The notes under the pieces: model-generated
Databases searched by the model: none
Seen by the model: only the letters and a program-made list of their open reading frames with translations
What the model was told of the DNA's origin: nothing
Made by a program: the position numbers and the translations under genes
Shown here: piece by piece, positions 1,495 to 25,350 of the stretch
Numbering within the stretch: position 1 is the first letter of the stretch
Layout of the letters: the number at the start of each line of letters is the position of its first letter
Source: Halarcobacter sp.
GTDB lineage: Bacteria; Campylobacterota; Campylobacteria; Campylobacterales; Arcobacteraceae
Length of the DNA: 64,000 nucleotides
Assembly (NCBI GenBank): GCA_048571215.1
Contig: CP182352.1
Coordinates: 2,304,001 to 2,368,000, forward strand
Direction: 5' to 3'

Positions 1495-1597
1495 TAAATA
1501 TCTTTCATTAATTCTAATAATTTCTTATTATTTTAACATATGGATACATAAAATATATTTGCACTTATCTTTGTGCAACTACTTACAAGTTGAATTC

Positions 1598-3808: not shown

Positions 3809-3841
3809 AAAAAAAGCCCCGTCAAAAAGGACAGGGCTTTT
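3809..3841 (-). terminator. Rho-independent terminator of valS
   Basis: AAAAGCCC-CGTC-AAAAAG-GACA-GGGCTTTT hairpin followed by a T-run on the minus strand. Confidence 0.75.
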
Positions 3842-3865
3842 AAAAATCGAACTAAAGTTTTTTTA

Positions 3866-6481: not shown

Positions 6482-6591
6482 CTAAATTCCTATGTTTTGA
6501 TTGCATTGTTTTTAAAATATCCGCGATTATATCCAAAAAAGGTTTTATTTTAGGTAACACATCTAATTTGTAAATGTTTATTTTTATAAAG

Positions 6592-6622
6592 TAAGTACTA
6601 AAGTAAAGTGCTTTAGTACTTA
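6592..6622 (-). terminator. Hairpin after the flotillin gene
   Basis: TAAGTACTAAAG-N7-CTTTAGTACTTA perfect 12-bp stem just past the stop codon. Confidence 0.6.
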
Positions 6623-6626
6623 GAAG

Positions 6627-8330
6627 TTATTTGTTTAAATCTTTTGTAAAGCTATTTAAATCAGCTCCATCAAGGTTTAATTCTTTTAGTAGTGAGTCTA
6701 CTATAGGTGATTGAGCTCTATATTTTAAGGCACTATTTACAAGTTGGTCAGGTAAAGAATCTGATGCTGAACTATTTGATTGTTCCCCACTAGAGCTTTG
6801 TCCTTGTTGACTTAGTCCATCAACTTGCAATATTTTGATACTCTCTATTTGTTCCATTGGTTTTACACTTTGAGCAATTATTTCAGGTAATTGTTCTATG
6901 AGTTTTAGTTTTATTTGCATAGCAATTTGATCTACTGATAAGGTATTTGATGCATTATTAATAGCCTCTTTTCCTTCAGCTTCAACTTTATATTCAATCG
7001 CTTTTGCTTCTGCTTTTAATTTTTCTGCTTCATTATCACTTTTTGCTGTAATAATTGCTTTATCAGCTAAACCATGAGCTAAGATTCTTTGTGCTTCTGC
7101 TTGATCTTCTGCCGCTTGTTTCTCTGCTTCTGCACCAACTTTTATGCTAATAGCTACTTTTTCTGCTTCTTGTGAAGCTTCAACTAATTCAATAGATTTA
7201 GTTCTTTCTGCAACCTCTGTTTCCCTTACAGTTTTAACTTTTTCTTCTGCTTTTACAGCCTCTGCTCTTGCTTCATCTGCTTGTGCTTTTGCAATAGATT
7301 GCATTTTTGATTTTTCTGCAACTGCAATCTCTCTATCTTGGTTTGATAGTTCTATTGATTTATTTTTTTCAATATTCTTTTCTTCTAATAATTGTTCTTT
7401 TAAAATTCTTGCTTGTTCAGTCTCTTTTTCTGAGGCAATTCTTTTTTGTTCAATCTCTTGATCAGCAAAGATTTTTGAATTTTCTGCTTCTTTTCTTTGT
7501 TCTGCTTCCTCTTTAGCAATCTCAGTAACTTGAGAAGCTCTTCTTACTGCTACTTCTCTTTCTTGTTGTAAAACGGCATACTCTTCTTCTTTTTTAATCT
7601 CTAAAGATAATCTTCTTGTTTCTAAGTCTTTTTTCTCTATTTCTACAGCGGTATCTCTTTCTATATCATTTCTTATTTTTCTTCTTGCTTCAATCTCTTG
7701 AGTTAATCTTGTAAGACCCTCTGCATCAAAAGCATTATCTGGATTGAAATACTCTTTACTTGTTTGGTCAAGTCCTGTTAAAGAGACTGATTCTAATTCT
7801 AAACCATTTTTTAATAAGTCTTCAGATACAACTTGTTGTACTTTTTGAACAAAATCTACCCTTTGCTCATGTAATTCAACCATATGCATTTCAGCAGCAA
7901 CTGCTCTTAGGGCATCTACAAATTTTCCCTCTATTAACTCTTTTAGCAAATCAGGTTGAGTAGTTCTTATACCCAACGTTTGAGCTGCAAAAGCAATTGA
8001 TTCATTTATAGGTTTAACCCTTACATAAAATTCAGCTAAAACATCAACCCTCATTCTATCTTTGGTAATAAGTGCTTGTTCATTTGACCTTTGAACTGCA
8101 AGTCTTAAAGTATTCATATTTACAGGGATTATCTCGTGTAAAATTGGTAATACAATAGCACCACCATTCATAATAACTTTTTCACCACCTAATCCTGTTC
8201 GTACAAAAGAGATCTCTTTTGAAGCTCTTTTGTATAATCTTGTAAAAATCATTCCAAGTGTAATTAATGCAAGTATTATAGTTGCTGGAATAACTAATGC
8301 CATTGATGATAAATCTAATCCAAAATCCAT
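6627..8330 (-). CDS. Flotillin/SPFH family inner-membrane protein (YqiK-like)
   Basis: N-terminal TM, SPFH domain (ALITKDRMRVDV, GLELESVSLT, FDAEGLT), long EA-rich coiled coil. Confidence 0.92.
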   Translation of the reverse strand: MDFGLDLSSMALVIPATIILALITLGMIFTRLYKRASKEISFVRTGLGGEKVIMNGGAIVLPILHEIIPVNMNTLRLAVQRSNEQALITKDRMRVDVLAEFYVRVKPINESIAFAAQTLGIRTTQPDLLKELIEGKFVDALRAVAAEMHMVELHEQRVDFVQKVQQVVSEDLLKNGLELESVSLTGLDQTSKEYFNPDNAFDAEGLTRLTQEIEARRKIRNDIERDTAVEIEKKDLETRRLSLEIKKEEEYAVLQQEREVAVRRASQVTEIAKEEAEQRKEAENSKIFADQEIEQKRIASEKETEQARILKEQLLEEKNIEKNKSIELSNQDREIAVAEKSKMQSIAKAQADEARAEAVKAEEKVKTVRETEVAERTKSIELVEASQEAEKVAISIKVGAEAEKQAAEDQAEAQRILAHGLADKAIITAKSDNEAEKLKAEAKAIEYKVEAEGKEAINNASNTLSVDQIAMQIKLKLIEQLPEIIAQSVKPMEQIESIKILQVDGLSQQGQSSSGEQSNSSASDSLPDQLVNSALKYRAQSPIVDSLLKELNLDGADLNSFTKDLNK

Positions 8331-8339
8331 ATTTTCCCT

Positions 8340-8999
8340 TTATTTTAATTTTTCTGGTATATCTTTTATTGCAAAAAAAAGTTTTTCATTTTGCCCTGAG
8401 ATTAAAACTTTTTCCCCTTGTAAAAAAACATCATTTTCATTTTCTGGTTCAATCATAAAATAATGAACCTGACCACTTTGATCTCTTACTTTTGCTTCTG
8501 CTGGTGAACCTTTTTTTGCTTTGCCTAAAGTTATAATTGCTATATGTCCTATTAGTTCATTTTTTGATATTGATGAAGTTTCATCTTTTGGTAAAATTTT
8601 TGCTACTATTCCACCAAAAATTCTTAAACTAATAATTGAACAAATAAAAGTGGGAATTAATACTATATATTGAAGCCACAAAATCCCCAAAAAACTATAT
8701 AATACAGCTTGTATTAATAATCCAATAAGGGCAAATGAAGTTAAAAATATCACTAGCAACATCATAATAGGAACTTCTTTTAGCCTAATCCAACCAAAAA
8801 ATTTAGTTAAAGAAAACTCTGTATCCACATCAAAATCCAAATCTGTATCAAAATCTGGAATTAGTGAATCAAGCATGTCAGATAAGCCTAAGCCTATTAA
8901 AACAAAAGCACCTTCTAACAAAGCAATAAATATCATCAATATAAGAGCACCAGTAAAGATAATATTATTACTGTTAAATAAGAAATCTATTAGACTCAT
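8340..8999 (-). CDS. YqiJ-like membrane protein with C-terminal NfeD-type OB fold
   Basis: TM helices; LIG..A.ITLG.A..G.PAEAKVRD..GQ.HY motif; directly upstream of the flotillin gene. Confidence 0.85.
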   Translation of the reverse strand: MSLIDFLFNSNNIIFTGALILMIFIALLEGAFVLIGLGLSDMLDSLIPDFDTDLDFDVDTEFSLTKFFGWIRLKEVPIMMLLVIFLTSFALIGLLIQAVLYSFLGILWLQYIVLIPTFICSIISLRIFGGIVAKILPKDETSSISKNELIGHIAIITLGKAKKGSPAEAKVRDQSGQVHYFMIEPENENDVFLQGEKVLISGQNEKLFFAIKDIPEKLK

Positions 9000-9628
9000 T
9001 TTCTATTTGCTTTTAAACTTTGCAATCTTTCTGATACTCTATTATCTCTTGATAATTTATCAAGTTCTGCTAATTTCATATCATCATTATTTAAAAACTT
9101 AGAATCCACCCCTGTATTTACCCTATTAAAAGCCTCTTCAGCTTTTTGCATATTGTTATTTATATTTGAAGAGGTTTTTTCCTCTTTATTGATTTTAATA
9201 AACTCTTCAAGCTCCTTTTGCATCTCTCTTTTTTTTGCATTTAAAGCATCAATATAGTTTTCTAGCTTAGTTATGTTTTTTTGTATTTGTGAAACTGTTT
9301 CCTCTAAAATAGGAATTTGTGTTTCAATATCCATTTGTCTAGATATTGCAGATTTAGCCAAATCATCCCTTTGTTCTGAGATTGCTATCTCTATTTGCTC
9401 TGTAAGTTTTTCATATTTTGATTTTTCATTTTCCATTTGTTGTTTAGTTTTTCTAAACTCAATAGTCTCCTTACCCAATGAAACCTTTACCTCATCAATA
9501 GTTGAATCAATCTCTCTAATTGTCTCTTTCATTACAAGTTCAGGAGAAAGCGATTCAGCTTTATCAATCACAGCATTTATACTTCCAGAAATCAGCCTAC
9601 TAACCCTCGATGTTATATTTTCATTCAT
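8996..9628 (-). CDS. PspA/IM30 family protein
   Basis: N-terminal amphipathic helix (RVSRLISGSINAVIDKAE..PE), RDDLAK motif, coiled coil. Confidence 0.85.
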   Translation of the reverse strand: MNENITSRVSRLISGSINAVIDKAESLSPELVMKETIREIDSTIDEVKVSLGKETIEFRKTKQQMENEKSKYEKLTEQIEIAISEQRDDLAKSAISRQMDIETQIPILEETVSQIQKNITKLENYIDALNAKKREMQKELEEFIKINKEEKTSSNINNNMQKAEEAFNRVNTGVDSKFLNNDDMKLAELDKLSRDNRVSERLQSLKANRK

Positions 9629-9657
9629 TTACTTATCCTTCAAAGTTGAGATAAAAT

Positions 9658-9690
9658 ATAATAAATAAAAAACGTCACATTTCCGTCACA
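9658..9690 (-). promoter_or_regulatory. Putative promoter of the pspA operon with TGTGACG-N4-TGTGACG direct repeat
   Basis: + strand CGTCACA at 9673-9679 and 9684-9690; on the minus strand a TATTAT hexamer follows 9 nt downstream; same layout at 20551-20583. Confidence 0.55.
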
Positions 9691-9809
9691 AATTAACTAA
9701 ATTTTGAAATTTTTATCAAAAAAACCTATTTCTAAATCTTTCTAAAACTTTTTGGATTTTTATTTAAGCTTTAATTCTTATAATCCTTAGCTTGAAGAAT
9801 GGAGAAAAG

Positions 9810-10739
9810 ATGGATATAACAAAAACGATTGAGGATTTTTTATTTCATTGTATATATGAAAAAAATCTAAGTGAAAAGACAATTAAAGCATATAAAATAG
9901 ATTTAAATCAATTTAAAAAATTTAATACTTGTAAAAACATAAAAGATATAGATAAATATACCTTAAAGGAGTATCTAAAACTATTATATGAAAAAAAACT
10001 AAAAGAGAAAACTATAAAAAGAAAGTTTGCAACGCTTAAAGCTATGTTTACTTACCTTGAGTTTGAAGAATATATTTTAGTAAGTCCATTTAGAAAAATG
10101 AAACTAAGTATAAAAGAACCTCAAAGACTTCCTAAAACAATAGAATTAAAAGAGATAAAAAAGCTTTTTATTTATGTATATAAATTAAAAAATCAGTTCA
10201 AAAATAAAAATACCTATACATACAAAAGTATCATAAGAGATATAGCTGTACTAGAACTGCTTTTTGCAACAGGTGTAAGAGTAGCAGAAGTTTGTGACAT
10301 AAAAACAAAAGATTTCAGCTCAAACTTTAGTGAACTTAAAATCATAGGAAAAGGAGACAAGCAAAGAACAATACATATCTGTAACAATGAAGTAAAAAAT
10401 GCCCTAAAAGAGTATCAACTTTTCTTCAAAGAAAAGATAAAAAAAGACGACAACTTTTTTATAAATAGATTCAATAAAAAATTATCAGAACAATCAGTTA
10501 GATTTATGATTAGAAAATATCAAGAACAAAGTAAAATAGAAAAACATCTAACCCCACATATGTTCCGCCATAGCTTCGCCACTCTACTTTTAGAAGAAGG
10601 AGTAGATATACGATATATCCAACATATGCTAGGACATAGTTCAATATCAACCACACAAATATATACAAAAGTAAGTCTGAAACATCAAAAGAAAATTTTA
10701 AATACCAAACATCCTAGACGAAGTTTTGAAGTAGATTAA
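9810..10739 (+). CDS. Tyrosine recombinase (Xer-like, no arm-binding domain), probable invertase/integrase
   Basis: Complete catalytic set: GVRVAE (R), GKGDKQR (K), HMFRH, LGH, TTQIY; ATG 9810 has a GGAG RBS (ORF track starts at TTG 9792). Confidence 0.95.
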
Positions 10740-10780
10740 TACTAGATAATATTTTTAGTTTTTTATTGTCTTTTTTAATG

Positions 10781-10807
10781 AAGGATAATAGGATATTATG
10801 AATAATA
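10781..10807 (+). repeat. Inverted repeat, left copy (IR-L), containing the RBS and ATG of the 807-aa gene
   Basis: AAGGATAATAGGATATTATGAATAATA is the exact reverse complement of 20481-20507 (27/27; 31/32 if extended to 10812). Confidence 0.95.
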
Positions 10808-13221
10808 GAGAAAATAATTTATTACTTTTAGTTGTAGGTTTAGGAGGTGCTATTGGTACAACTTTAGCATCAGGTTTTGCAATACCGAATAGTGAATCAA
10901 AATTAGGTTTAATGACAGAGAATCCATTAATAAAGTCATTAGGTATAAAATTTATTACTTCAAAAAATATTACACTTAGTGGTTGGGATATTAATCAAAA
11001 AAATCTTTTTGATATTGCTAGCGAATTAAAAATTGTTCCTGCTGAAAGACTACTTCAATCAAAAAGATACTTATCTTCAATTAAACCGCGTCCAGGCATT
11101 ACAAGAAAACATAATCTAAAAGAATGGTTTTATACAGAAATTGAACAATTAAACATATTAATAGAACAGACTCAATCTGATCAAGTTATAGTTTTAAATC
11201 TTCTTCCTACAGAACCAAATTATTTACAAGTAGATAAAGAGATAGATTGGGATAGTCTTGGTTCCATTTCATTAGAAACAGAGGAAGTGACTCTAAGTAG
11301 ATTATATTTTAAATTAGCTATAGAGTTGGGAGCTCATTATATTAACTTCACTCCAAATAATGCAGAAACTACACAATTGCAAAAACAAGCAATTTCCAAA
11401 AATCTAATTTTTTGTGGTAGAGATGGAAAAAGTGGACAAACATTTTTAAAAACTGTATTAGCACCTGCATTTTATCAACGTAACTTTAAGATTAATGGTT
11501 GGTATAGTACAAATCTATTAGGGAATAAAGATGGCTTAGCACTTGCTGATCCTGTAATATTTGAAACAAAAAGACAATCTAAATCCAAATGTTTAGAAGA
11601 TATAATAGGCTATGCACCAGGTGGAATAGAAGAAGCTTCATATGGACATCAGGTTCATATACACTATTATCCTCCAAGAAAAGATGCAAAAGAATCATGG
11701 GATAATATTGATTTTAGTGGTTATTTTGGTGAAGAGATGCAGTTAAAACTAAATTGGTTAGGAAAAGATTCTATTTTAGCTGCACCTATGGCATATGATC
11801 TTGTTAGAATAGTAGAGTTAAGTTCAAGGTTTAGTATAAAGGGTATTATCGAAGAAACAGGTGTATTTTTTAAAACACCTCTTTATAAATCAAAATATCC
11901 AATACACTCTTTTCCTACACAATTTGAAAATCTTTTAAAATACCTAAAAAAACTCAAATTAAATGACAATGCTTCTATTCATAATGATTGGCTGGATATA
12001 TTAAAAATATCTCCGCTATCTTCTCAAACAGGAATATACTTACATGCTTCAGAAAATATGCTCCCATATTCAGCTCGTTTAGCTCAAGCTTTAGAAGCTA
12101 TAGAGAGATACTCTTTAAAACCTCACGAGAAGTTTGAAGACAATGATATATATTTTGCAAATAATATCCCATTGCAAAAAGTCAAACAAAATTTGATAGA
12201 TAAATTTCAAGAAGTTCTATCTAGCTCTTGGGTAAGTGTGTCTGCTTTATCTGGGTTACATGCCACAGAAATATGCTTTAATTCATTTGTGAAATTAGAT
12301 GATGATGTATTTATTGTTTCTCCAAAACATGGTGGACATCCATCTATGGAACCTTTACTTAAAAGTATGAATGTAAATGTGCATTTTCTACCTTTTTTAG
12401 AAAATCAACTTATTGATGTAAATAAATTAAAAGATATGATATATAGTATAAAACCTGTTTTAATTGTATTTGATATTAGTGATTCTTTAAGAGAACAGGA
12501 TTTAGATTTTATAAAAGATATTAAAGGTAAATCTATAATTTTATTTGATGTATCCCAAACTTTAGGATTAATTATTGGAAAATCATTAACTAACCCTTTA
12601 GATAAAGGAGTAGATATTATAATAGGTACTACTCACAAAACATTTCCAGGTCCCCACAAAGCTATAATCGCTTCAAATAATAAAAAAATAGCAGAAAAAA
12701 TAGAAAATACAATCTCCATAAAAGTTAGTAGTGATCATACAGATCATATATTGAGTTTAAATGCTGCTTTAGATGAATTTCTACCCATAGCTGAAGAATT
12801 TGCAGAACAATGTAAAATAAATATTCAACTTTTTGCAAAGCTACTTAAAACATATAATATTAATGCTATTGATAGTGTTCCTTTAGATACTCATCAAATT
12901 TGGGTAATTTTTTTAGATCCTGAAGAAGCAAAAAAAGCTTATTTAGATTTAGAAAAAGCAGGTATATTTACAAATCTTAGAAAACTACCATTTAACTATG
13001 GATGGGGACTTAGAATAGGACTTCATGAAATAACACTAAGAGGTTTTAAAGAAGAAGATATAAAACAATTAGCAAAACTTTTTTCTAAAATTATCATAGA
13101 AAAAGTAGAACCATTAGAAGTCAGAGACCATGTAATTAAGTTAATAGAAAACCTTGTTCCATTATTAAAAACAAAGACTCCATTGAGTGAATTTTTACAA
13201 AAACATTTACTAGGAGAATAA
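10798..13221 (+). CDS. Fusion of myo-inositol-1-phosphate synthase (N-terminal ~390 aa) and an SHMT-like/threonine-transaldolase-like PLP enzyme (C-terminal ~410 aa)
   Basis: MIPS motifs VGLGGAIGTT, GWD, NFTP, GRDGKSGQT, NLLGNKDG, DSILAAP; SHMT-fold motifs HASEN, SGLHA, HGGH, DVSQ, TTHKTFPGP, GLRIG. Confidence 0.9.
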   Translation: MNNRENNLLLLVVGLGGAIGTTLASGFAIPNSESKLGLMTENPLIKSLGIKFITSKNITLSGWDINQKNLFDIASELKIVPAERLLQSKRYLSSIKPRPGITRKHNLKEWFYTEIEQLNILIEQTQSDQVIVLNLLPTEPNYLQVDKEIDWDSLGSISLETEEVTLSRLYFKLAIELGAHYINFTPNNAETTQLQKQAISKNLIFCGRDGKSGQTFLKTVLAPAFYQRNFKINGWYSTNLLGNKDGLALADPVIFETKRQSKSKCLEDIIGYAPGGIEEASYGHQVHIHYYPPRKDAKESWDNIDFSGYFGEEMQLKLNWLGKDSILAAPMAYDLVRIVELSSRFSIKGIIEETGVFFKTPLYKSKYPIHSFPTQFENLLKYLKKLKLNDNASIHNDWLDILKISPLSSQTGIYLHASENMLPYSARLAQALEAIERYSLKPHEKFEDNDIYFANNIPLQKVKQNLIDKFQEVLSSSWVSVSALSGLHATEICFNSFVKLDDDVFIVSPKHGGHPSMEPLLKSMNVNVHFLPFLENQLIDVNKLKDMIYSIKPVLIVFDISDSLREQDLDFIKDIKGKSIILFDVSQTLGLIIGKSLTNPLDKGVDIIIGTTHKTFPGPHKAIIASNNKKIAEKIENTISIKVSSDHTDHILSLNAALDEFLPIAEEFAEQCKINIQLFAKLLKTYNINAIDSVPLDTHQIWVIFLDPEEAKKAYLDLEKAGIFTNLRKLPFNYGWGLRIGLHEITLRGFKEEDIKQLAKLFSKIIIEKVEPLEVRDHVIKLIENLVPLLKTKTPLSEFLQKHLLGE

Positions 13222-13222
13222 A

Positions 13223-13966
13223 GTGGCGATGAAAAAAGATATAAAAGTATTTATTGCTTCAACAGGAACGCAAATTTATAGAGAAAAAGCTAAAGAATTA
13301 GCTGAAAGTTTAGCTAAGCATTTTACAATTTATTTTTGGGAAGATGTTTTTGAACCAGGAGATACAAATATAGAAGCATTAGAAAAAGCTGTAAAAAACT
13401 GTGATTATTCTGTAGCTTTTTTAAGTAGTGAAGATTTAACTGTGAAAAGTGGGATTGAAAACCTTCAACAAAGAGACAACCTTATCTTTGAATTTGGTTT
13501 ATTTACTGGTGCTTTAGGTAGAAAAAGAAAATTTGGAGTAACCTTTGGTAGAGGTAGTGAAATAAGCTTACCTTCAGATTTAAATGGCTTAGTTTTAATA
13601 AAAGAAAATATCAACTCACATAATTTAATAAGTGATATTTCTAATAAAATTTTAGATTGTATTCAAGAGTTAGGATTCAAAGATAAAGATAATAAAGAAG
13701 TATATTTTTTATATGATTCATATAAAGTATTTGAACTCACTCCAAAGTGTATTGATATATTTGAAAAATTATTTAATAACTTTTTAAGTATTAGAACTTA
13801 TATTGAGAGAATTATTAATATATATCTATTAAATAGTATACCTGAAATTATTATGGATAAAATGTTTGTAGGTTTCCTATATTATATAGGTGATGGCATT
13901 AAAATAACTCAAAATAATACTAATAACTCTCTTGTATATTTTTGTAAAGATAGTGCAATAGCATGA
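13223..13966 (+). CDS. TIR-domain protein (CAP12/Pycsar-effector-type TIR) with an unrecognised ~90-aa C-terminal region
   Basis: VFIAS...W..VFEPG...EAL...DYSVAF...RDNLIFEFGLF.GALGR, with the putative catalytic Glu; GTG start with AGGAG RBS. Confidence 0.88.
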   Translation: MAMKKDIKVFIASTGTQIYREKAKELAESLAKHFTIYFWEDVFEPGDTNIEALEKAVKNCDYSVAFLSSEDLTVKSGIENLQQRDNLIFEFGLFTGALGRKRKFGVTFGRGSEISLPSDLNGLVLIKENINSHNLISDISNKILDCIQELGFKDKDNKEVYFLYDSYKVFELTPKCIDIFEKLFNNFLSIRTYIERIINIYLLNSIPEIIMDKMFVGFLYYIGDGIKITQNNTNNSLVYFCKDSAIA

Positions 13967-13976
13967 GAAAAGATAA

Positions 13977-15164
13977 ATGAATATACCTAAGTGGCCAAGA
14001 ACAGATAAAATGGGGGAAAAGTATATTTTAGATGTCTTAGCTTCTAATCAATGGGGAGCAACGGGAATAAGATGGAGAAAAAAATCATATGAAACAAAGT
14101 TCACCAATAAATTTGCAAGTTATAATAATAGTCCATATTGCCTAACTACGTTAAATGGATCTACAGCTATAGAGTTAGCTCTTTTAGCTTTAGGCATAAG
14201 AAAAGGAGATAAGGTTTTAGTCACTGCACTTACTTGGGTATCTTGTGCTACTGCTATATTATCAGTAGGTGCCATTCCTATATTTATTGATATAGATAAG
14301 TCAAATTTATGTATGGATATTGCTAAAACTAAATATGCATTAAAAAAATATAAAAAGTGTAAAGCAATTTTATTGGTTCATGCTTATTGTAGTATTGCTC
14401 CAATTGAAGAATTTATAAAACTTACAAAAAAATATAAAGTACATTTAATAGAAGATTGTTCCCAAAGTCATGGTGCTAAATATAAGAACCAATTGTGCGG
14501 TTCATTTGGAGTATGTGGTATATTTAGTATGCAAAGTTCAAAAGTATTATCAAGTGGTGAAGGAGGTGCAATAATATTTCAAAAACAAAAATATTATACT
14601 AAAGCTCAAAAACTTAGACTTGATGGAAGAGTTCCTTCAAATTTTCCTATCGGACAAACCCTTGTTAAAACTTATAATCCTATAAGTGGTAGAAATAGAA
14701 CTATTACAGAGTTTCAACATGCATTACTACTTAGAGGGTTAGAGTTATTAGATAGTGAAAACAGTATAAGAACAAAAAATGCTTCATATTTAGGAGATAT
14801 TTTATCACAATATAATATTTCATATTTTTTTCAAAAGAGTAAAAAAGTACTTCCATCATTTTATAGATTTATATATTTTTTTGATAAAGAAAAAATGTAT
14901 GGAAATGATATTGATGAACATATTGAATATTTAGTAAAAAATGGTATACCAGCAGAAAGAGTTCATATACCTATACCTTTAAATCGTGCTATTCCAAAAA
15001 ATTTACAAAAAAATAAAAAATTTGTAAAAGATAATTTTCCTATTTCATTAGAAATTTATAATAGTTGTGTGACATTAGCTCATCAATGTTTACTCATGGA
15101 TGGAGTTAATATAACTGAACTATCAAAATACATAATAGAAGATAAAGTAGATAATTTTGAATAG
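13977..15164 (+). CDS. DegT/DnrJ/StrS PLP aminotransferase, BtrR/StsC-like (inosose aminotransferase)
   Basis: NGSTA, LTW..ATA, IEDCSQSHG, FSMQSSKVLSSGEGG; the N-terminal P.WP...W..G...E.KF and LR.DGR pattern recalls BtrR. Confidence 0.88.
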   Translation: MNIPKWPRTDKMGEKYILDVLASNQWGATGIRWRKKSYETKFTNKFASYNNSPYCLTTLNGSTAIELALLALGIRKGDKVLVTALTWVSCATAILSVGAIPIFIDIDKSNLCMDIAKTKYALKKYKKCKAILLVHAYCSIAPIEEFIKLTKKYKVHLIEDCSQSHGAKYKNQLCGSFGVCGIFSMQSSKVLSSGEGGAIIFQKQKYYTKAQKLRLDGRVPSNFPIGQTLVKTYNPISGRNRTITEFQHALLLRGLELLDSENSIRTKNASYLGDILSQYNISYFFQKSKKVLPSFYRFIYFFDKEKMYGNDIDEHIEYLVKNGIPAERVHIPIPLNRAIPKNLQKNKKFVKDNFPISLEIYNSCVTLAHQCLLMDGVNITELSKYIIEDKVDNFE

Positions 15165-15873
15165 AAATATAAATCTATCATGTATTGAAATAGAGATTAA
15201 TACAAAATGTAATTTTAAATGTTCTTATTGTCCCTCATCATTTAACAATGTAAAAAATTCATATATGTCTTTTGAAAAATATAAGATTATAATTGATAAG
15301 TTAAAACAAGTTGACTTTAATGGTAGATTATCATTTCATTTTTACAATGAACCTACTTTGCACCCTGATCTTGAAAAATTTATAAAATTTTCCTCAAAAG
15401 AACTTCCTAAAGCATTATTGAGACTATATACAAATGGATCAAGATTAAACGATAAGCTTTATTGTAGATTATCAAATGCTGGTGTGGATCAATTCTATGT
15501 AACACTTCATAAACAAACCCCTAATCTACCTACAAGACCAAAGCAGGTAGTAAGAGAATTGAGTAACATAGATATTACAAATAGAGGAGGTTCATTGCAT
15601 AGTATTAATAATCATTTAGAGATACCTTGTATGCTTCCTCAAGAGTTCTTATTATTTGATATAAATGGAAATGCACTAATGTGTTTTGAAGACTATTATA
15701 AAACTGAAATATTTGGAAATATTTTTATAGATTCTTTAGAAAAAATTTACTTCAATACTAGATTAGAAATATTTCGTAAACATCTATCTCTAGGAGATAG
15801 AACAATTTGTAATATTTGTAAAAAATGTGATAGCAAAGCTTATCAAAAACTAGGTCAGGTATATATAGAATGA
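15157..15873 (+). CDS. Radical SAM enzyme with twitch domain, BtrN-like (aminocyclitol dehydrogenase)
   Basis: IEIEIN..CNFKCSYC, GRLSFHFYNEP, YTNG, NRGG, C..P, CFED, CKKC; size and motif order match BtrN as recalled. Confidence 0.85.
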   Translation: MNRNINLSCIEIEINTKCNFKCSYCPSSFNNVKNSYMSFEKYKIIIDKLKQVDFNGRLSFHFYNEPTLHPDLEKFIKFSSKELPKALLRLYTNGSRLNDKLYCRLSNAGVDQFYVTLHKQTPNLPTRPKQVVRELSNIDITNRGGSLHSINNHLEIPCMLPQEFLLFDINGNALMCFEDYYKTEIFGNIFIDSLEKIYFNTRLEIFRKHLSLGDRTICNICKKCDSKAYQKLGQVYIE

Positions 15874-16820
15874 ATACAACTTTAGAAATATGGCCAGCAA
15901 AATGGTTACAAAATATTCATTGGACATTTTGGGAAGAAACAGTTAAAAACAATTTTGGCTTAAATAGTCCATTTTTTGATATTAATTTTTTTAAAAGTAT
16001 TATATCTTATCAACCCTATAGTTATAGTATGGTATTTAAATCTAAAGGGGGTATTATTGCTATGTTACCTTTTGAAGTGGCTACAAAAAATAGAGCAAGA
16101 CTTTTATCTCCAGATATAGTAGGACTACATGGACTTATAATTCATAAAGACAATTTAAATAAAATTGATTTAAAAACTGCCATAAAAAAAGCTGGATTAA
16201 GATATTTACTCTTTGATCAAGTTCCTGGATGGCAAAGTACTTTTAATCCTTTTACAAGAATAGAAGATAATGCACCAAATCTAATACTTTCAAAAAGTAT
16301 TGAACGCACTAAAGTAAGTTGGAAAAACTCTGGGCAAAATACATTTGTAAATATAGATTTTAAGACTAGAAAACTTGAGAAAAAAGGTAGGCTTACTTAT
16401 ATATTTGATACAGTATCTCCTTTACTTTTTAGATATTTATCTTTAAATAAACAAAATCAATTTTATAAAACAGGTGAAGAGAATCTTTTTAGTACTAAAG
16501 AGTTTCAATCTATTTTAAATTATTTAAAAATAAATAAATCAAACAATTGTAAACTGGTCCTTTCAGCTCTTTATTTAGATAATATTCCAATAGCTGCACA
16601 TTTAGGATTATCTTCTAAAAAGACTTTTTATTCTTGGTATCCTGTGATGGATAAAAAAATAGGAAATGATTCCCCTGAATTAGTGTTATTTGGATATATT
16701 ATAAATACTCTCCATAAAAAAGGTTACAAAGTTTTAGATTTTGGCACTCAACCTATGCTTTATAAAACAAGATTGAGCAACTCCTCTTATAAAATAAAAA
16801 GAGGACTTATTCGCCCTTAG
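15870..16820 (+). CDS. GNAT-fold acyltransferase (CelD/BcsL, Acetyltransf_6-like)
   Basis: LSALYL...PIAAHLG...SWYP...SP..VL...G..VLDFG....YK.R. Confidence 0.8.
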   Translation: MNTTLEIWPAKWLQNIHWTFWEETVKNNFGLNSPFFDINFFKSIISYQPYSYSMVFKSKGGIIAMLPFEVATKNRARLLSPDIVGLHGLIIHKDNLNKIDLKTAIKKAGLRYLLFDQVPGWQSTFNPFTRIEDNAPNLILSKSIERTKVSWKNSGQNTFVNIDFKTRKLEKKGRLTYIFDTVSPLLFRYLSLNKQNQFYKTGEENLFSTKEFQSILNYLKINKSNNCKLVLSALYLDNIPIAAHLGLSSKKTFYSWYPVMDKKIGNDSPELVLFGYIINTLHKKGYKVLDFGTQPMLYKTRLSNSSYKIKRGLIRP

Positions 16821-19800
16821 TTACTCTAAGAATTTCTCTTGCCATTTCTTCAAAATATGTGTCAAAGTCATAAGTTTTAAATATTTTTTCGTACCAATTA
16901 AAAAATAATTCTAAGTGTTTACATGAGTCATTTAGTAAAAAGTATTTTGCTATTTCATCATGATCCCATTCTTGACCTGAAATATCTAAGTCAAGTTTAT
17001 TAGCTAATTTATCAATTTCAACATATAAATCATAATACTTTTCTTTATTTAAAACAAACTTTACTTTTTTAGGATAAATTTGAGCCATTCTAGCTAATGT
17101 CTCTTTTATCCAATATTCTGGAATTATATTTTCATCTTTTATTTTTAAAACTTCAAGTATAGCTTTAAGAGATGCATCTGGAAATATACGAATCATCTTT
17201 CTTATGGATAAAAAGTTTAGTTTTGTATATTTTACATCTATTGCTTTTGGGACTTTTTTTAATTCTTTTGCTTCCATAACATTTTTAATTCCTTTTGAAA
17301 ATATTGGTATTTCATTATCATAATTATACAAAAGTCCCTCTATCATAGCAACTTGATTCATGGGATTATATGTTTCATTAAGCGGATTTTCACATGATAA
17401 TGTTAAGAAAAAATTCTCTGGCTGAGTTTCTTCAAAATAATACATCCATTCTTCCATTTCATTTAATATTTTTTGACAACCATCTCTATCATTTTTATCA
17501 AGTTTAAATATGGCTATTCTTTGTGCTAAGCATAATGCAGCATCTATTGAAAAGTAAAAATTTGACTTAATAAAATGTCTTAATATCCCCATACCCACTT
17601 CAGAATCAAAATACGCAGATTTTAATATACAATATCTAGCTAATATGTGTTCTATTCTATATGAATATAAAGTTGGATTACTTTTTGTCATGTCCGCTGG
17701 TTCTTTAACATCTGAACAAAAGAACCTCAATATTTCAATTTCACTATTATTAAGTTCATCTTTATTACAAACTTTTTTATACATATTTCGTAGTTGTTTT
17801 GCATAATTCTCAACATCATCACTCATTTTCCATAGATATTCTAAATGGTTATGATTTGCATCTAATGAAAAGAAATTATCAGCATAGTTTTTAATAGACA
17901 ATATAAAACTATTTATTAAATTATTTTCAAAATTAATTTTATTGGTTGAACTATTTATAACTCTATTTAGTGTATAAAGTATATTTTTTCCTATATCTCC
18001 ATCTAATTTAATACTTTTATCAAAATAAATTGATAATACAAAAATCAAACCTACCAATTGTTCTGATGTTATCGATGAGTTTTTTGCAAAATAACTTTCA
18101 AATTTAGAAAGCAGTTTTCCTCTTCTACTTGGAGTTAAAAAGTTTAAATAGATACCATATCTTGACTTTTCATACCATTTTTTATTTCCGCTTAATATAG
18201 TTTCAATTAAAAAACTTACAGCATGTAAATTATCTGAACAATACTCAACTATAAATTCTAAGAACTGTTCTTTGTCGTTAAAAGCTTCTTCAATAAAATC
18301 AAAGCCTTCACCACCATTTTCAACTAGAATTTCTTGCAAAGTATCTTTTATTAGAAGTTTTACATCATTATTTTCAATATTTAAAAGCTCTCTTAGTCTT
18401 GATATATCTGTAAGTAATGAACTTCTATTTGGTGAGTCAATGTAATTACAGCTAATATTCACTAGTGCAGATTTTAAACCTTGTATTAAATGAAACTCTC
18501 CTTTTGACTCATTTAAAATATTAACGATTTTAGAAGTGTCAAACCCCTCATCTAATTCATAAAGTTCTATAATAGATAAACCCAAAATATACTCAAAAAA
18601 TCTATCATATGTAAAACTATATCTATCATTATGAGAGCTGGTTTTATTGATTATTCTTTCATCATACAAAATATCATAAAAAGTTTTTTCTTGATCTTTT
18701 TGAGGAAATAATGATACTAAACTTTCATCAAAAGAAAATTGTTTTTTAGAAGTATTATACCCCATTGTTTGTTTTAAAAATCTACTACCTAATGATTTTA
18801 ATATTCTTTCAAACATAAACTTCTTTGGTAGTTTTTCTAAATACATTTTAAAAATAGAAAAAGCAGGTGCATATTTTGGAATTGTATCATTATTATACGC
18901 TCTTGCCATAAGATTCATTAATAGTGGATCAGATAAATGTTCTTTAAAATGCTCATCAAGACTTTCCCACTCACCTAATAAATTATAGGCTCTTTTATAT
19001 GATTTAAAAGCTAAAGGAGCCTCTTCTTTATTATATTTTTCTATTTTAAAAATTTTACTATGATGATAAAACTTAGTTATATTAGATGAATTATGCTCCA
19101 TTTGATTCCAATATATCTCTCTGCATGAAAATAGAATTTTTATTCTATCTCTTAAAACACCATCTAAAGCTAGATTTTCTATCTCTTTTTTTAGATTGCT
19201 AGGTGTAATTGTAGTAAATTCATTTATTGCATCAATTTGTATTAAAAGATTTAAATTATTTAGCTCTAAATAAGCATTTAGTGCAGAAAACCAAGTATCT
19301 TTTAAGTAAGGTTTAAATGTAAATTTTTTACTTAAGTATTCTAATAAAGAATTGTTATTATCAAAACTCTCTGGCTCTATTGTTAACGTTAAAAAAGAAC
19401 TACATTCATATCTTTTCATTGTATTATAATATATATATGTAGATTTACCCATCCCAGCTTCACCAACTAATGCAAAAATTTTAGAGTCATTTTTTAAAAA
19501 ATCATTATAGGAGTTGTTTACAGATATTCTTTCTATCAAAGTATCCATACCACCATCTGGAATTTTAGATTCTAAATTTGATAAAGCAGAATTATTAATA
19601 TTTTTTAACTTTTGTAATAAGTTTTCTTCTTCGGCATATAATCTAAATTCTTGATGGTTACTTATATACTTTAAATATTTCTCTTTAATAGGGTTATTAT
19701 TGTTAATATGGGAAAAAGTTTCTTTCATAAATTCTGAAAAATAGTATCCTAAGGTTATATATTCTCTATTTAGAAAATGATTTGTTCTGTTTTTTTTAGA

Positions 19801-20490
19801 CATGACATATACAGGGTTTTTAGTACTTTGATCTATAAACTCAAACAAAGGCTTATCTTGAAAAGAATAACCTATGGATAATATAGGATTTAAGAATATG
19901 TCAGTTAAAAACTCTTTAACTGATTCTTGAAAACTCATTTTTTCACTTCTAAATACAGCTTCAACATATGATAAATCACCCCATAAATGAGCAATAACTA
20001 CTTTATTGTTATTTAGTTGTTCTTTGATTTTAGCTATATTTTCAGTATGATTATCATCTCTTGTAAAAGAAATAGATTTTATGCTTTCATCATTCATACA
20101 AACAGCTTTGTGTGCATCTTCAAGAAGATCGTCATAGTTTGTAGTAAGGATAATTGTAGAATAACCATTTCTTTCCCTTACTCTTGCTAGACAAAAAGAT
20201 AAAAATTCAATATGCACTGAATTGGGGTGTCCGACTAATTTAGTTTCACATTCATTTTGAATATCTTTTTCATATTTATTTAAAAATTCATCAAATTTAT
20301 TTTCTAATTCATCTTTTGTTAAATTATGATAACCATATCGATTTAGGATATCTTCTTTAATTTCAGTATATGATGGTATTTTCTCACCATTTTCTTTTAT
20401 TCCTTCAGTTGATGCGCCCGCACCAACTAAAATTGTCAAAGTACCTTTATAGCTTATCAAGTTTTCAATAATTTCTTCTATATTATTCAT
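16807..20490 (-). CDS. SIR2-like domain + STAND (NACHT/Avs-like) NTPase + long helical C-terminus; candidate antiphage protein
   Basis: LVGAGAS, TTNYD, IGYSFQD (SIR2_2); GEAGMGKS Walker A, LLIQIDAINE Walker B, FSCRE, DPLL, FTYDRFFEY. Confidence 0.88.
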   Translation of the reverse strand: MNNIEEIIENLISYKGTLTILVGAGASTEGIKENGEKIPSYTEIKEDILNRYGYHNLTKDELENKFDEFLNKYEKDIQNECETKLVGHPNSVHIEFLSFCLARVRERNGYSTIILTTNYDDLLEDAHKAVCMNDESIKSISFTRDDNHTENIAKIKEQLNNNKVVIAHLWGDLSYVEAVFRSEKMSFQESVKEFLTDIFLNPILSIGYSFQDKPLFEFIDQSTKNPVYVMSKKNRTNHFLNREYITLGYYFSEFMKETFSHINNNNPIKEKYLKYISNHQEFRLYAEEENLLQKLKNINNSALSNLESKIPDGGMDTLIERISVNNSYNDFLKNDSKIFALVGEAGMGKSTYIYYNTMKRYECSSFLTLTIEPESFDNNNSLLEYLSKKFTFKPYLKDTWFSALNAYLELNNLNLLIQIDAINEFTTITPSNLKKEIENLALDGVLRDRIKILFSCREIYWNQMEHNSSNITKFYHHSKIFKIEKYNKEEAPLAFKSYKRAYNLLGEWESLDEHFKEHLSDPLLMNLMARAYNNDTIPKYAPAFSIFKMYLEKLPKKFMFERILKSLGSRFLKQTMGYNTSKKQFSFDESLVSLFPQKDQEKTFYDILYDERIINKTSSHNDRYSFTYDRFFEYILGLSIIELYELDEGFDTSKIVNILNESKGEFHLIQGLKSALVNISCNYIDSPNRSSLLTDISRLRELLNIENNDVKLLIKDTLQEILVENGGEGFDFIEEAFNDKEQFLEFIVEYCSDNLHAVSFLIETILSGNKKWYEKSRYGIYLNFLTPSRRGKLLSKFESYFAKNSSITSEQLVGLIFVLSIYFDKSIKLDGDIGKNILYTLNRVINSSTNKINFENNLINSFILSIKNYADNFFSLDANHNHLEYLWKMSDDVENYAKQLRNMYKKVCNKDELNNSEIEILRFFCSDVKEPADMTKSNPTLYSYRIEHILARYCILKSAYFDSEVGMGILRHFIKSNFYFSIDAALCLAQRIAIFKLDKNDRDGCQKILNEMEEWMYYFEETQPENFFLTLSCENPLNETYNPMNQVAMIEGLLYNYDNEIPIFSKGIKNVMEAKELKKVPKAIDVKYTKLNFLSIRKMIRIFPDASLKAILEVLKIKDENIIPEYWIKETLARMAQIYPKKVKFVLNKEKYYDLYVEIDKLANKLDLDISGQEWDHDEIAKYFLLNDSCKHLELFFNWYEKIFKTYDFDTYFEEMAREILRVTKGE

Positions 20491-20507
20491 AATATCCTAT
20501 TATCCTT
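20481..20507 (-). repeat. Inverted repeat, right copy (IR-R), containing the RBS and ATG of the SIR2-STAND gene
   Basis: + strand TATTATTCATAATATCCTATTATCCTT is the reverse complement of 10781-10807. Confidence 0.95.
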
Positions 20508-20550
20508 TATTTAATATATTATAAAATAATCTTAATTAATATAATAAATA

Positions 20551-20583
20551 ATTCTATCATATTTACGTCACAAATTCGTCACA
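20551..20583 (-). promoter_or_regulatory. Putative promoter pointing into the cassette: TGTGACG-N4-TGTGACG-N9-TAGAAT (extended -10 TGnTAGAAT)
   Basis: + strand CGTCACA at 20566-20572 and 20577-20583; ATTCTATCA at 20551-20559. Confidence 0.6.
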
Positions 20584-22793: not shown

Positions 22794-22882
22794 TAGTTAG
22801 TAAGTATTTTATATAGTTTTTTCATTTGCGAATATTATCATAAAGATTCTACGTTAATTATAAAAGTTCAAAAAATATAGCT

Positions 22883-23000
22883 AAAAAAAAAGCTCCTTAG
22901 GAGAGGAGCTTTTTTACACACAAGGAAACAAATTTCTGGAGAATTTAAAAAATTCGCAATTTTAAATTATTTAAGAAGATTCGCGTTTCTTCTTATCCAT
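22883..23000 (-). ncRNA. Putative sRNA, copy 1 (~118 nt)
   Basis: TATAAT at 23012-23007, two hairpins, C/U-rich linker, GCTCCT/AGGAGC terminator followed by T9. Confidence 0.65.
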
Positions 23001-23075
23001 AAGAAAATTATAATAGATGGGGATTAACTAAAGCATAATAAAAAGTTAATGGTTAGTTAATTGAGATTTTTAGGC

Positions 23076-23192
23076 AAAAAAAAAGCTCCTTAGGAGAGGA
23101 GCTTTTTTACACACAAGGAAATAAATTTCTGGAAAATTTAAAAAATTCGCAATTTAAATTATTTAAGAAGATTCGCGTTTCTTCTTATCCAT
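23076..23192 (-). ncRNA. Putative sRNA, copy 2 (~117 nt)
   Basis: Same promoter, hairpin and terminator layout as copy 1. Confidence 0.65.
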
Positions 23193-23277
23193 AAGAAAAT
23201 TATAATAGATGGGGATTAACTAAAGCATAATAAAGAGTTAATGATTAGTTAATATTAGTGTATATTTATAAAATAAG

Positions 23278-25350
23278 CTATTTTATTGGCAAAATAATGT
23301 CAAATTTTGCACCCTTGTATTTTTTATCTTGATAAATAAAATTAGTGTTTTCTACACTTATAGTACCATTCATCCCAGCAACTATAAAATTATAAGTGAT
23401 ATTTAACCCCAATCCTGTTCCCATACTTTTGTGTTTAGTAGTTGTATAGGGTTCAAATATATTATCCATAATCTTTTTATCAATCCCTCCACCATTATCT
23501 TTTAATGACAAATAGACAAAGTTATCTCTTTTTTTCAATGTTATAAAAAACACTCTTTCATTTTCTGGTAAATTTATTAACACATCTTTAGCATTATTGT
23601 AAATATTTATAATAGATTGTATAAACTCATTTGGATAACCTTTTATAACTATACTTTCGTCACAATCTAATATAATATTTATATAATTATTTGAAATTGA
23701 AGCCTTTACCAAAGTTAATAGTTGTTGGATAGTATCAAAAATATTAAACTCAACTAGGATTCTTTCGCCTCTTATAAAATTTCTAAAATCATCTATAGTT
23801 TTAGATAAAAATTGTGCATTATTGTTAATCAAATCCATATTATCAAATAACTCTATATCCTGTAAACTTCCCATCTCTTTTTTAAGTTTTGTCCCTGTTG
23901 ATACAGTTGATATTACACTTAAAGGTTGTCTCCATTGATGGGAAATATTTCCAATCATTTCCCCTAAAGATGCCATTTTTGATTGTTGTAGTACAATATT
24001 TTGTTGTTTTATATAATCAGTTATATCTGTTATATATCCTAAGATATCTGTTATTTTTCCATTTTCATCTTTTAAAGTTACTATATAATCTAAAACCCAC
24101 TTTATTTCATCATCTTTTGTAATAACCCTGTAAGGTTCATGTTTAAAATATTCTATTCCTCTGTTGATATTTGTGAATAATTCATTCTTTACAATATTTA
24201 CATCTTCAGGATGGATACAAGAAATATATGAAACCTTTTTATTAATAAATGCTTCTGATTCATACCCTAGTAGCTTATTTATAGATAAAGATACATATTG
24301 AGCATCTAAACTTAAGCTATCTTCCCAACTAAACTTAAATAAAACTACATCACTCTTATCAAATAGTGATAGCAAAGTTCTTTGGTATTGGCTTAAAGAT
24401 TCAGCTATTTTTTTCTGTTCATTTAACTCGTCATATGCAATAGCTAGTTTTTGATTTATACTTTTTATTGACCTATTTTTATATATTACAATTAATACTA
24501 TTAATGAAAAAATACCAATTACATAAAAAAGTTTTGAATAATCAAAAACCTCTTGTACTTTTATCTCTATCCATTTCCCTACAATGGTTCTAATTCTATC
24601 TTGGTCAATCGCATCTAAAGCTTTTTGCATAATAGTGTTTAATATAGGTTCATCATTTCTTGAAGCAATACTCAAATCAATAGTAAACTCTAACTTTCCA
24701 GCGATTTTAATATCATATAAGCCATATTTTTGAATATTATAACCAACAGCTTCCATAATATCTATGTATCCAAAAAGCTCTCCATTTTGAACTTTTTCTA
24801 AGCCCTCTTTTGCATTTTTCACTTCAACTATTTGTATATTGGGATTACGTAGTTTTAAAACCTCAATAAAAGCATAACTTTTAACAATGCCAATTTTTTT
24901 ATTATCTAAATCTTTAGTATCTTTAATAAAAAACTTATCTAGTTTAGTAGCAATAACAAAGGGTTCTTTCCAGTATGCCTTAGTAAAATTCATATAATCT
25001 CTTCTACTTGGAACATCCATGGCAACAGGAAGAATATCACACTTTCTTTTTTTTATATTTTCCAATGAAACAGCCCAACTTTTAGTAGGTACTAAAACAA
25101 TAGGGGTATTTATATACTCTGATACTAATTTGATTAAATCACTTCCTATACCATTGTGTTTATTGTTTTCATCTATTTGTTCAAAAGGCATCCAATCTGG
25201 TAAAACACACATTTTTATAGGACGATGATTATGTAACCATTGTTTTTCTTGGCTTGTAAGGTTTATATTAGAATTTGCAAAAAGTGTAGGTATAAATAAA
25301 ATATTAAATATTAAGATAAACAAAAAAATTTTATACTTAGATTTTAACAT
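23278..25350 (-). CDS. Sensor histidine kinase (periplasmic solute-binding domain, PAS, HisKA/HATPase)
   Basis: MASLGEMIGNISHQWRQPL, DNGGG, GTGLGL; IHPED-type PAS motif. Confidence 0.93.
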   Translation of the reverse strand: MLKSKYKIFLFILIFNILFIPTLFANSNINLTSQEKQWLHNHRPIKMCVLPDWMPFEQIDENNKHNGIGSDLIKLVSEYINTPIVLVPTKSWAVSLENIKKRKCDILPVAMDVPSRRDYMNFTKAYWKEPFVIATKLDKFFIKDTKDLDNKKIGIVKSYAFIEVLKLRNPNIQIVEVKNAKEGLEKVQNGELFGYIDIMEAVGYNIQKYGLYDIKIAGKLEFTIDLSIASRNDEPILNTIMQKALDAIDQDRIRTIVGKWIEIKVQEVFDYSKLFYVIGIFSLIVLIVIYKNRSIKSINQKLAIAYDELNEQKKIAESLSQYQRTLLSLFDKSDVVLFKFSWEDSLSLDAQYVSLSINKLLGYESEAFINKKVSYISCIHPEDVNIVKNELFTNINRGIEYFKHEPYRVITKDDEIKWVLDYIVTLKDENGKITDILGYITDITDYIKQQNIVLQQSKMASLGEMIGNISHQWRQPLSVISTVSTGTKLKKEMGSLQDIELFDNMDLINNNAQFLSKTIDDFRNFIRGERILVEFNIFDTIQQLLTLVKASISNNYINIILDCDESIVIKGYPNEFIQSIINIYNNAKDVLINLPENERVFFITLKKRDNFVYLSLKDNGGGIDKKIMDNIFEPYTTTKHKSMGTGLGLNITYNFIVAGMNGTISVENTNFIYQDKKYKGAKFDIILPIK

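Follow-up and report, generated by a model that had tools for sequence, protein, structure and literature searches.

In the sediment bacterium Halarcobacter sp., 9.7 kb of genes for immune-type proteins and for the synthesis of small molecules lie between pcrA and the pspA operon. This block is probably best explained as a locus with a fixed frame and a cassette that is flipped by a recombinase, so that one end is up in each orientation and the cargo can be replaced. Under this explanation a small mobile locus would consist of the frame (a recombinase, a silencing left flank and a promoter-bearing right flank) and the replaceable 9.7-kb cassette. All coordinates refer to the 64,000-nucleotide stretch of DNA that was analyzed, hereafter the window. 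The cassette contains six ORFs, with a five-gene operon on the plus strand convergent to a 1227-aa ORF on the minus strand. In the assembled orientation the SIR2-STAND protein would be up and the aminocyclitol/TIR operon down, flipped cells would show the opposite, and the flip would set which half each cell makes in quantity.

The cassette is bounded by a perfect inverted repeat of 27 bp with identical copies at 10781-10807 (plus strand) and 20481-20507 (minus strand). As the earlier note had claimed, these copies hold the start codons of both modules, namely ATG 10798 of an 807-aa ORF and ATG 20490 of the convergent 1227-aa ORF. The 3.61-Mb genome contains no third copy with up to 5 mismatches allowed, and the possibility that the 27-mer is a common translation-start motif was rejected on this count. 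The repeat is thus real and unique; the conserved unit, however, is TnAAT-N4-GATAAT-N5-ATTAT and not the full 27-mer. The left site (10775-10807, plus strand) has the outer TnAAT and a core at 10784-10799, and the right site (20481-20513, minus strand) has its core at 20489-20504, both with the spacer AGGAT. Most relatives share only about 16 bp, the working core GATAAT-N5-ATTAT, and in most of them the start ATG lies outside it. Of 66 related tyrosine recombinases, 47 are followed by this core and the remaining 19 are not. Each position of the outer AAT, on which the search did not depend, is conserved in 18-22 of 22 sites. A second, distant inverted copy of the core occurs in 21 of the 47 site-bearing homologs, and in several loci the site starts 2 bp after the recombinase stop. 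Additionally, a contig end lies no more than 700 bp away in 21/47 site-bearing homologs versus 1/19 without the site, an excess that is suggestive, although short metagenome contigs bias it.

Site-specific inversion of the whole cassette is strongly supported. The locus is present in four sequencing runs (X1-X4, none of them an RNA run), whose contigs derive from at most two samples of one study that is possibly the source of this genome. In X1-X3 the contigs cover 6000-10807, 10781-20507 and 20481 onward at similar depth (48, 43 and 46.5 in X1), and those of X4 also end at 10807 and 20507. The ends at the left site are therefore 10807 and 10781 and those at the right site 20507 and 20481, and in three of the four runs the assembly graphs break exactly where mixed orientations predict. 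Simulated assembly at k=31, a value inferred from 30-bp contig overlaps elsewhere in the same run data, produced no break from one orientation and exactly the observed ends from both; the repeat as the only cause of the breaks was rejected at this k, although one orientation at k=28 gives the same ends. A control simulation with foreign cargo does not match the observed ends. No inversion joint is among the contig matches listed. In silico inversion of the segment truncates neither ORF and leaves the proteins unchanged, in agreement with the claim that recombination within the repeat spares them.

Related genomes provide additional evidence. Loci L053 and L096 have flanks that are 99.8-99.9% identical and a cassette that is 99.9% identical and lies in opposite orientations, and cassettes are also reversed between L056 and L058 (94.6%) and between L001 and L059 (75.5%). 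Both orientations thus coexist, as indicated indirectly at the window locus and directly between near-identical relatives. It is very improbable that the cassette has ceased to flip and that the repeat is only a relic or was produced by the assembly, with breaks contributed by other strains or library chimeras. The origin of the contigs from one study only would fit such a history, but the simulation with two orientations, unlike the foreign-cargo control, reproduces all four junction ends, depth is even over flanks and cassette, the recombinase is intact and near-identical relatives hold opposite orientations.

The enzyme that flips the cassette is inferred to be the neighboring Xer-like tyrosine recombinase (309 aa; 9810-10739, plus strand; Pfam PF00589 and PF02899). 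It ends, as had been described, 41 bp before the left repeat, with the catalytic motifs R157, GKGxK, H250-x-x-R253, H276 and Y285 all intact. Its scores fall below the cut-offs of XerC (243 bits, cut-off 335), XerD (238, cut-off 330) and IntI (114, cut-off 265), and it is not of the FimB/FimE type (57 and 55 bits, cut-offs 222 and 221). Relatives of the recombinase were not found in viral contigs. It would exchange strands within the two inverted GATAAT-N5-ATTAT cores and so flip the cassette, which would require the 5-bp spacers of partner sites to match. The spacers differ from one cassette to another, so several cassettes in one genome may flip independently of one another.

Expression of the two ends appears to be governed by the flanks. 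Outside the right repeat there is an inward promoter (20551-20583, minus strand) with TGTGAC-N5-TGTGAC at 20567-20583, a 10-nt gap and a -10 hexamer TAGAAT at 20551-20556, which is part of TGATAGAAT at 20551-20559 on the minus strand. The earlier note had pointed to this promoter, and it looks real: the geometry matches host copies of the repeat and is kept in 10 of the 13 in the genome. The promoter thus appears, from its motifs, to belong to a host promoter class that is common to the pspA operon. A second candidate -10 (TATAAT, 20518-20523, minus strand), 13 nt outside the right core, is conserved in L001. A generic promoter scan gives no support, as it did not pick up the right promoter and reported fewer sites than in shuffles. 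Another copy of the element, that of the pspA/yqiJK operon (9674-9690, minus strand), marks the host side of the insertion, and in the empty locus of genome G002 this left copy is retained immediately before pspA. The two GTCACA tandem repeats were also considered as a target-site duplication and rejected, both because the motif is a promoter element with 13 genomic copies and because the empty locus matches the left GTCACA copy together with its upstream DNA. An Rfam search of the locus gave no match.

On the left, an RNA hairpin is predicted over the ribosome site and AUG of the proximal gene (10750-10804, plus strand; -15.7 kcal/mol, z -4.5; 0/200 shuffles as stable). It has 25 pair positions, with 16 Watson-Crick and 7 G-U pairs, and its arm is a U-rich antisense copy of the site that pairs with whichever gene is proximal. 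The G-U pairs are all transitions, a pattern that a decaying DNA repeat would also give. Since this fold would mask the ribosome site and the start codon on the proximal side, it is probably the distal end that is ON and the proximal one that is silenced. The end facing the right flank would be transcribed from the host-regulated promoter with its ribosome site free, whereas the end facing the recombinase would receive only read-through RNA in which the ribosome site and AUG are predicted to be folded away. The view that the left side has no promoter holds only in part, as there is a -10-like hexamer of the recombinase (TATAAT, 9779-9784, plus strand, conserved in L001) and no canonical terminator was found downstream of that gene. 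With regard to a single expression site, the window locus has the right promoter and the predicted left hairpin, but read-through from the recombinase is possible. Treponema- and Oscillospiraceae-type loci have promoter-like hexamers on the recombinase side, so this polarity is not universal. Against the preferred explanation as a whole, only 8 loci out of 23, belonging to two lineages, have a site-covering hairpin, and 19 of 66 homologs lack the site.

The cargo differs entirely between loci with conserved flanks in four pairs: window/L001, L053/L058, L144/L145 and L147/L148, the last with a right flank that is alike over 44 bp only. In L060 the flank is complementary to one spacer and the cassette bears another, and tandem cassettes with different spacers are present in L070 and L059. 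From these comparisons we infer that cargo may be exchanged at the sites across related genomes. Neither this exchange nor the left hairpin was part of the earlier note, nor was another cassette of the same invertible family that lies in the same genome as the window locus, at genome coordinates G000:C1:2230194-2233462. The four swaps and the tandem cassettes would also suit a recombinase that captures cassettes in the manner of integrons or pdif, with both ends expressed in either orientation and the flip being a by-product or only tuning their ratio. The lack of a canonical terminator after the recombinase, the sites 2 bp past the stop in several loci and the promoter-like motifs on both sides of L070 point the same way. 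This alternative is nonetheless unlikely given the predicted hairpin over the ribosome site at the window locus, the terminator-like hairpins on the recombinase side in L036 and L063, the single-direction cargos of L036, L060 and L063, in which a flip can act only as an ON/OFF switch, and the fact that inverted sites yield inversion and not excision.

Recognized defence-type domains occur in 9 of the 16 cargo types found. In seven of the 13 two-ended types an enzyme is combined with a STAND, SIR2 or TIR protein; among them is the L070 cassette, with ThsA and ThsB of one Thoeris system at opposite ends. These pairings make the ends look like halves of one system. Both RM cargos keep their genes co-oriented. 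No ATP-grasp match was found in plasmids.

In the window the operon begins with an inositol-3-phosphate synthase fused to an SHMT/threonine-transaldolase-like PLP enzyme (807 aa; 10798-13221, plus strand), a fusion that is full length in 3 close homologs. There follow, all on the plus strand, a CAP12/Pycsar-type TIR protein with a short C-terminal domain (247 aa; 13223-13966; PF10137, E 9e-22; a PADLOC TIR effector), a BtrR-like glutamine:2-deoxy-scyllo-inosose aminotransferase (13977-15164; PDB 2c7t, E 5e-68, next family 6e-33), a BtrN-like radical SAM/SPASM dehydrogenase (15157-15873; PDB 4m7t, E 2e-39) and a GNAT protein assigned by Pfam (Acetyltransf_6; 15870-16820). The BtrR-like and BtrN-like matches bear out the proposed aminocyclitol-type operon. 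A STING-like C-terminus of the TIR protein, an Atlas lead at 0.82, was dropped as it lacks Pfam support. Where the SHMT-like or BtrN-like part matched plasmids, the surrounding gene cluster was unrelated. The convergent protein (1227 aa; 16807-20490, minus strand) is Avs5-like, with a SIR2 fold followed by a STAND NTPase with an intact Walker A. Trp170 occupies the position of the catalytic His of SIR2 NADases and aligns with KomC H146, whose mutation abolishes NADase activity according to the portion of 10.1101/2024.12.20.629578 consulted. The window protein and its full-length relatives all lack this His and have Trp, Phe, Tyr or Leu instead. The best Foldseek match is Avs5 (9jap, E 5e-12) with a TM-score of only 0.30, and PADLOC gave neither an Avs match for this protein nor a complete system for either module. 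Its homologs were absent from plasmids, gave 1 weak match in viral data and among 401 genomes of the phylum were found only in G000. As a hint only, the SIR2-STAND homolog P0003 and the BtrN-like homolog P0308 both have a longest contig of 10508.

The chances are about even that one end makes a metabolite and the other senses, as the two halves of a single immune-type system; against this, transfer of whole cassettes could by itself account for the pairs staying together. A fuller account, which we put forward tentatively, is that widespread dedicated invertases flip exchangeable cassettes with the signal-making and sensing halves of one immune system at opposite ends, here a TIR/aminocyclitol pathway for a small-molecule signal and a His-less SIR2-STAND receptor of that signal behind a pspA-type promoter, such that the halves would be together only just after a flip or be split between siblings. 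Alternatively, in line with the bet-hedging of the earlier note, flipped and unflipped cells might express modules that are unrelated and each sufficient by itself, either an Avs5-like protein acting by abortive infection or the aminocyclitol operon. The evidence for inversion and polarity fits such bet-hedging equally, the best fold match is the stand-alone Avs5, aminoglycosides are described to block phage infection (PMC9239200, in part) and vpma loci follow the same logic (PMC2268961, in part). We nevertheless regard it as rather unlikely, and the claim of two independent defences as doubtful: the catalytic His is absent, PADLOC recognizes no complete system, the operon lacks a glycosyltransferase or exporter, the pairing of enzyme with sensor recurs with different enzymes and ThsA and ThsB are split in a related cassette. 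Thoeris needs both of these proteins.

If a flip does separate the halves of one system, it would be a novel means of restraining autoimmunity or of dividing labor. Recombinases beside defence genes are usually taken as markers of mobility, whereas here one defines a switch. The short searchable site motif is a pointer to new cargo, most cargo pairs being uncharacterized, and sites with different spacers may serve as independent genetic switches. The window cargo also links aminocyclitol chemistry, a TIR domain and a pseudo-SIR2 NLR-like protein in a testable manner.

Our literature search did not find this family of invertible cassettes described. The closest known system is Mycoplasma vpma/Xer1. 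In M. agalactiae vpma and M. bovis vsp a neighboring tyrosine recombinase (Xer1/Mbr) inverts DNA at 5' UTR sites, so that a complete silent ORF comes to lie behind the single promoter, the alternatives being surface lipoproteins with shared 5' ends (PMC2268961, in the part consulted). The window locus likewise has an adjacent intact tyrosine recombinase and inverted sites at ORF 5' ends. It differs in that its ends encode unrelated cytoplasmic-type enzymes and immune-type proteins rather than paralogous lipoproteins, with an operon of five genes at one end, and in that cargo is exchanged between genomes, spacers vary and the proximal end has a predicted anti-RBS hairpin. The opposed ORFs of Ureaplasma mba/UU376 and UU172/UU171 also alternate by inversion at short inverted repeats, but there either ORF becomes joined to a common 5' coding part, the products are surface antigens and the excerpted text of PMC3047005 does not name the recombinase. 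Inversions with an adjacent recombinase occur in defence loci such as hsdS shufflons and BREX/DISARM, and the screen for gene-altering inversions, as excerpted from PMC9881135, used repeats of at least 22 bp with one strictly inside a CDS and concerned chimeric alleles. In contrast, the window proteins are unchanged on inversion and most relatives share about 16 bp. Phage Mu has a G segment that is an invertible segment comparable with the P segment of PinQ/e14. Judging by its section titles, PMC12529663 describes inversion and recombinase induction during phage infection for the latter, which resembles our locus in tying inversion to phage defence and differs in its serine recombinase and chimeric tail-fibre-like product. 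With FimB/FimE the promoter lies inside the segment and the genes outside, whereas here the genes are inside and the promoter outside. As for the cargo, Avs5 (AVAST type V) shares an N-terminal SIR2 fold followed by a STAND NTPase, from which the window protein differs by its missing His, low TM-score and lack of a PADLOC Avs match. The BtrR-like and BtrN-like enzymes recall butirosin/2-deoxystreptamine biosynthesis, but the cassette begins with an inositol-phosphate synthase, has no 2-deoxy-scyllo-inosose synthase, glycosyltransferase or exporter among its six ORFs and adds a TIR and a transaldolase-like domain. Integrons and pdif/XerCD modules carry exchangeable cargo between tyrosine-recombinase sites and form tandem cassettes; the present locus differs from them by its own recombinase, which is below the XerC, XerD and IntI cut-offs, and by inverted sites around a two-ended cargo.

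The 27-bp inverted repeat described in the earlier note is present at 10781-10807 (+) and 20481-20507 (-), and the start codons of an 807-aa open reading frame and of a convergent 1227-aa open reading frame both lie inside it. Among gene starts elsewhere in the 3.61-Mb genome the 27-mer is not common, as a search allowing up to 5 mismatches returned just these two copies. The adjacent tyrosine recombinase is indeed intact, contains every catalytic motif and stops 41 bp left of the repeat. Domain and motif analysis defines this 309-aa protein as an Xer-like tyrosine type, scoring below the XerC, XerD, integron-integrase and FimB/E profile cut-offs, and its closest named relative is from an Arcobacter sp.

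Inversion of the 9.7-kb cassette is very likely, and the locus probably represents a real, active programmed inversion. The locus was found in four DNA runs, which come from a single study, represent no more than two samples and are possibly the genome's own source. In three of these runs one contig covers 6000-10807, a second spans precisely 10781-20507 and a third begins at 20481, all with similar depth; the fourth, X4, is fragmented and contains many 1-base deletions, and it too has contigs ending at 10807 and 20507. A 27-bp repeat cannot make a branch in a k=31 assembly graph, and simulation at k=31 gave no break with one orientation, exactly the contig ends in the runs with both orientations, and a pattern unlike the runs with a foreign-cargo control. 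A single orientation assembled at k=28 would give the same contig ends; 30-bp overlaps elsewhere in the same data indicate that k=31 was used. No inversion joint is listed for the four runs because the predicted junction pieces are just 33 bp. Additionally, sequence comparison of relatives offers independent support. Recombinase-homolog loci L053 and L096, with flanks 99.8-99.9% identical, share a 3.46-kb cassette that lies in opposite orientations in the two, and further reversed cassettes occur in L056/L058 and L001/L059.

The core of the repeat, GATAAT-N5-ATTAT, sits no more than about 150 bp from the stop codon of recombinase homologs. After removal of partial matches and short duplicates, the fetched loci contained 66 near-full-length homologs (at least 40% identity, some being near-copies), with the site present in 47 and absent in 19. 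An inverted copy occurs 1.6-9.7 kb away in 21 of the 47, the stored DNA stops within 700 bp in another 21, and 5 have no partner; partial loci L005 and L019 are also paired, giving 23 paired loci in total. An outer AAT (-7 to -5) that formed no part of the search pattern is conserved on both sides, with each position retained in 18-22 of 22 sites. The 5-bp spacer has nine forms, and in 22 of 22 loci the two ends share the same form, a match that is partly by construction because the partner search tolerated up to 2 mismatches. Close homologs lacking the site (L033, L037, L062, L064, L065 and 14 more) may be orphans or may act at a different site. Genome scans located the recombinase in 5 of 25 members of the genus and 14 of 401 of the order; scans of the class around an Oscillospiraceae genome gave 16 of 401, and those of the phylum around a Treponema genome gave 2 of 301.

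The inward right-hand promoter proposed earlier lies exactly 10 nt downstream of TGTGAC-N5-TGTGAC, a geometry reminiscent of OmpR/PhoB-type activation. The repeat has 13 copies genome-wide (9674-9690 and 20567-20583 in the window), and in 10 of them, the pspA promoter included, a TAnnnT hexamer is spaced identically; this promoter class is also seen before the gene that follows pcrA in several relatives. A second TATAAT on the right stands 13 nt outside the core. No canonical terminator was found after the recombinase, and the 41-nt left gap, a U-rich sequence antisense to the site, is predicted to pair with the ribosome site and AUG (-15.7 kcal/mol, z -4.5, 0/200 shuffles), with no fold predicted at the right junction. 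At this locus the distal end would thus likely be up and the proximal end damped. The hairpin could have originated as a decayed DNA repeat, since all seven of its G-U pairs are transitions. Of 23 loci, 8 (from two lineages) show such site-covering pairing at a probability above 0.7 on the recombinase side and none does on the far side, and two more loci have recombinase-side terminator-like hairpins. The remaining 13 of 23 have neither feature, and Treponema- and Oscillospiraceae-type loci have promoter-like hexamers (by eye) on the recombinase side, both of which argue against a general polarity.

One product of the left module joins an inositol-phosphate synthase to an SHMT/transaldolase-like enzyme; the others are a CAP12-type TIR, a BtrR-like and a BtrN-like enzyme, and a GNAT. 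These enzymes support the suggested aminocyclitol product; a full aminoglycoside cluster is not supported. The right protein model (pLDDT 88.6 over residues 1-600) is closest to Avs5 (structure match, E 5e-12, TM 0.30). Its SIR2 motif reads HLWGD where the catalytic H146 stands in KomC, a position occupied by F, W, Y or L in full-length relatives. Mutation of KomC H146 causes loss of NADase activity, according to passages of 10.1101/2024.12.20.629578. The SIR2 domain is more likely ligand-binding or altered than an NADase. Homologs P0124 and P0150 are 550- and 233-aa pieces identical to this SIR2-STAND protein, which suggests a frameshifted call in another assembly.

Our own grouping gives 16 cargo types. 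In seven of 13 two-ended types an enzyme faces a STAND, SIR2 or TIR protein (one by eye). Among these seven, the invertible cassette of L070 holds convergent genes for ThsA and a ThsB-like TIR (1596-3914 and 4897-6533) and is succeeded by a further cassette whose spacer differs, and in L007 another SIR2-STAND faces an ATP-grasp/kinase operon. There is about an even chance that the two ends are partners in one immune-type system, while the earlier view of independent alternatives appears rather unlikely. Two of three single-direction types are restriction-modification systems (L059:11410-17040; L060:2690-6681; L063:2931-5234), implying ON/OFF switching of whole systems.

Comparison of relatives shows flanks that are kept around differing cargo. 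The locus follows pcrA in 2 of 25 genus genomes (the window and L001), and pspA directly follows pcrA in two others, G002 and G016. L001, the other filled locus, keeps both flanks (88% and 86%) around a different 1.6 kb, with similarity ending at the cores. The same is observed in L053/L058, L144/L145 and L147/L148 (right-side match of 44 bp only in the last), and these four locus pairs appear to support cargo swapping. The L060 left flank is complementary to one spacer and its cassette has another, and L059 and L070 each have two cassettes with differing spacers and a single recombinase. Outside the window, the genome carrying it (G000) has at L038 (G000:C1:2229250-2233462) another recombinase of the family, 64% identical, with a 3269-bp cassette that sets a 707-aa STAND-TPR opposite a 328-aa ATP-grasp protein; its spacer, AGGTA, differs from that of the window cassette, and the locus lies next to an IS and relaxase-like genes. 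Elsewhere in the window, a ~193-bp unit that contains a GC-rich hairpin is repeated in tandem between pcrA and a histidine kinase gene (22878-23279); the two copies have no Rfam match and are possibly duplicated small RNA genes. A selenocysteine tRNA lies on the minus strand at 60517-60611.

A full-text literature search, whose passages included PMC2268961, PMC3047005, PMC10028968, PMC11868660, 10.1101/2024.12.20.629578, PMC9881135 and PMC12529663, turned up no account of the family; the PhaVa inverton tables could list such loci. One supplement of PMC9881135 gave no match and its others could list such loci, and a term search in PMC13069673 gave none. The locus would work like the vpma inversion of Mycoplasma agalactiae, yet falls outside the vpma family. 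What is new relative to known inversion systems is that the immune-type cargo is exchangeable and that one system may be split between the two ends.
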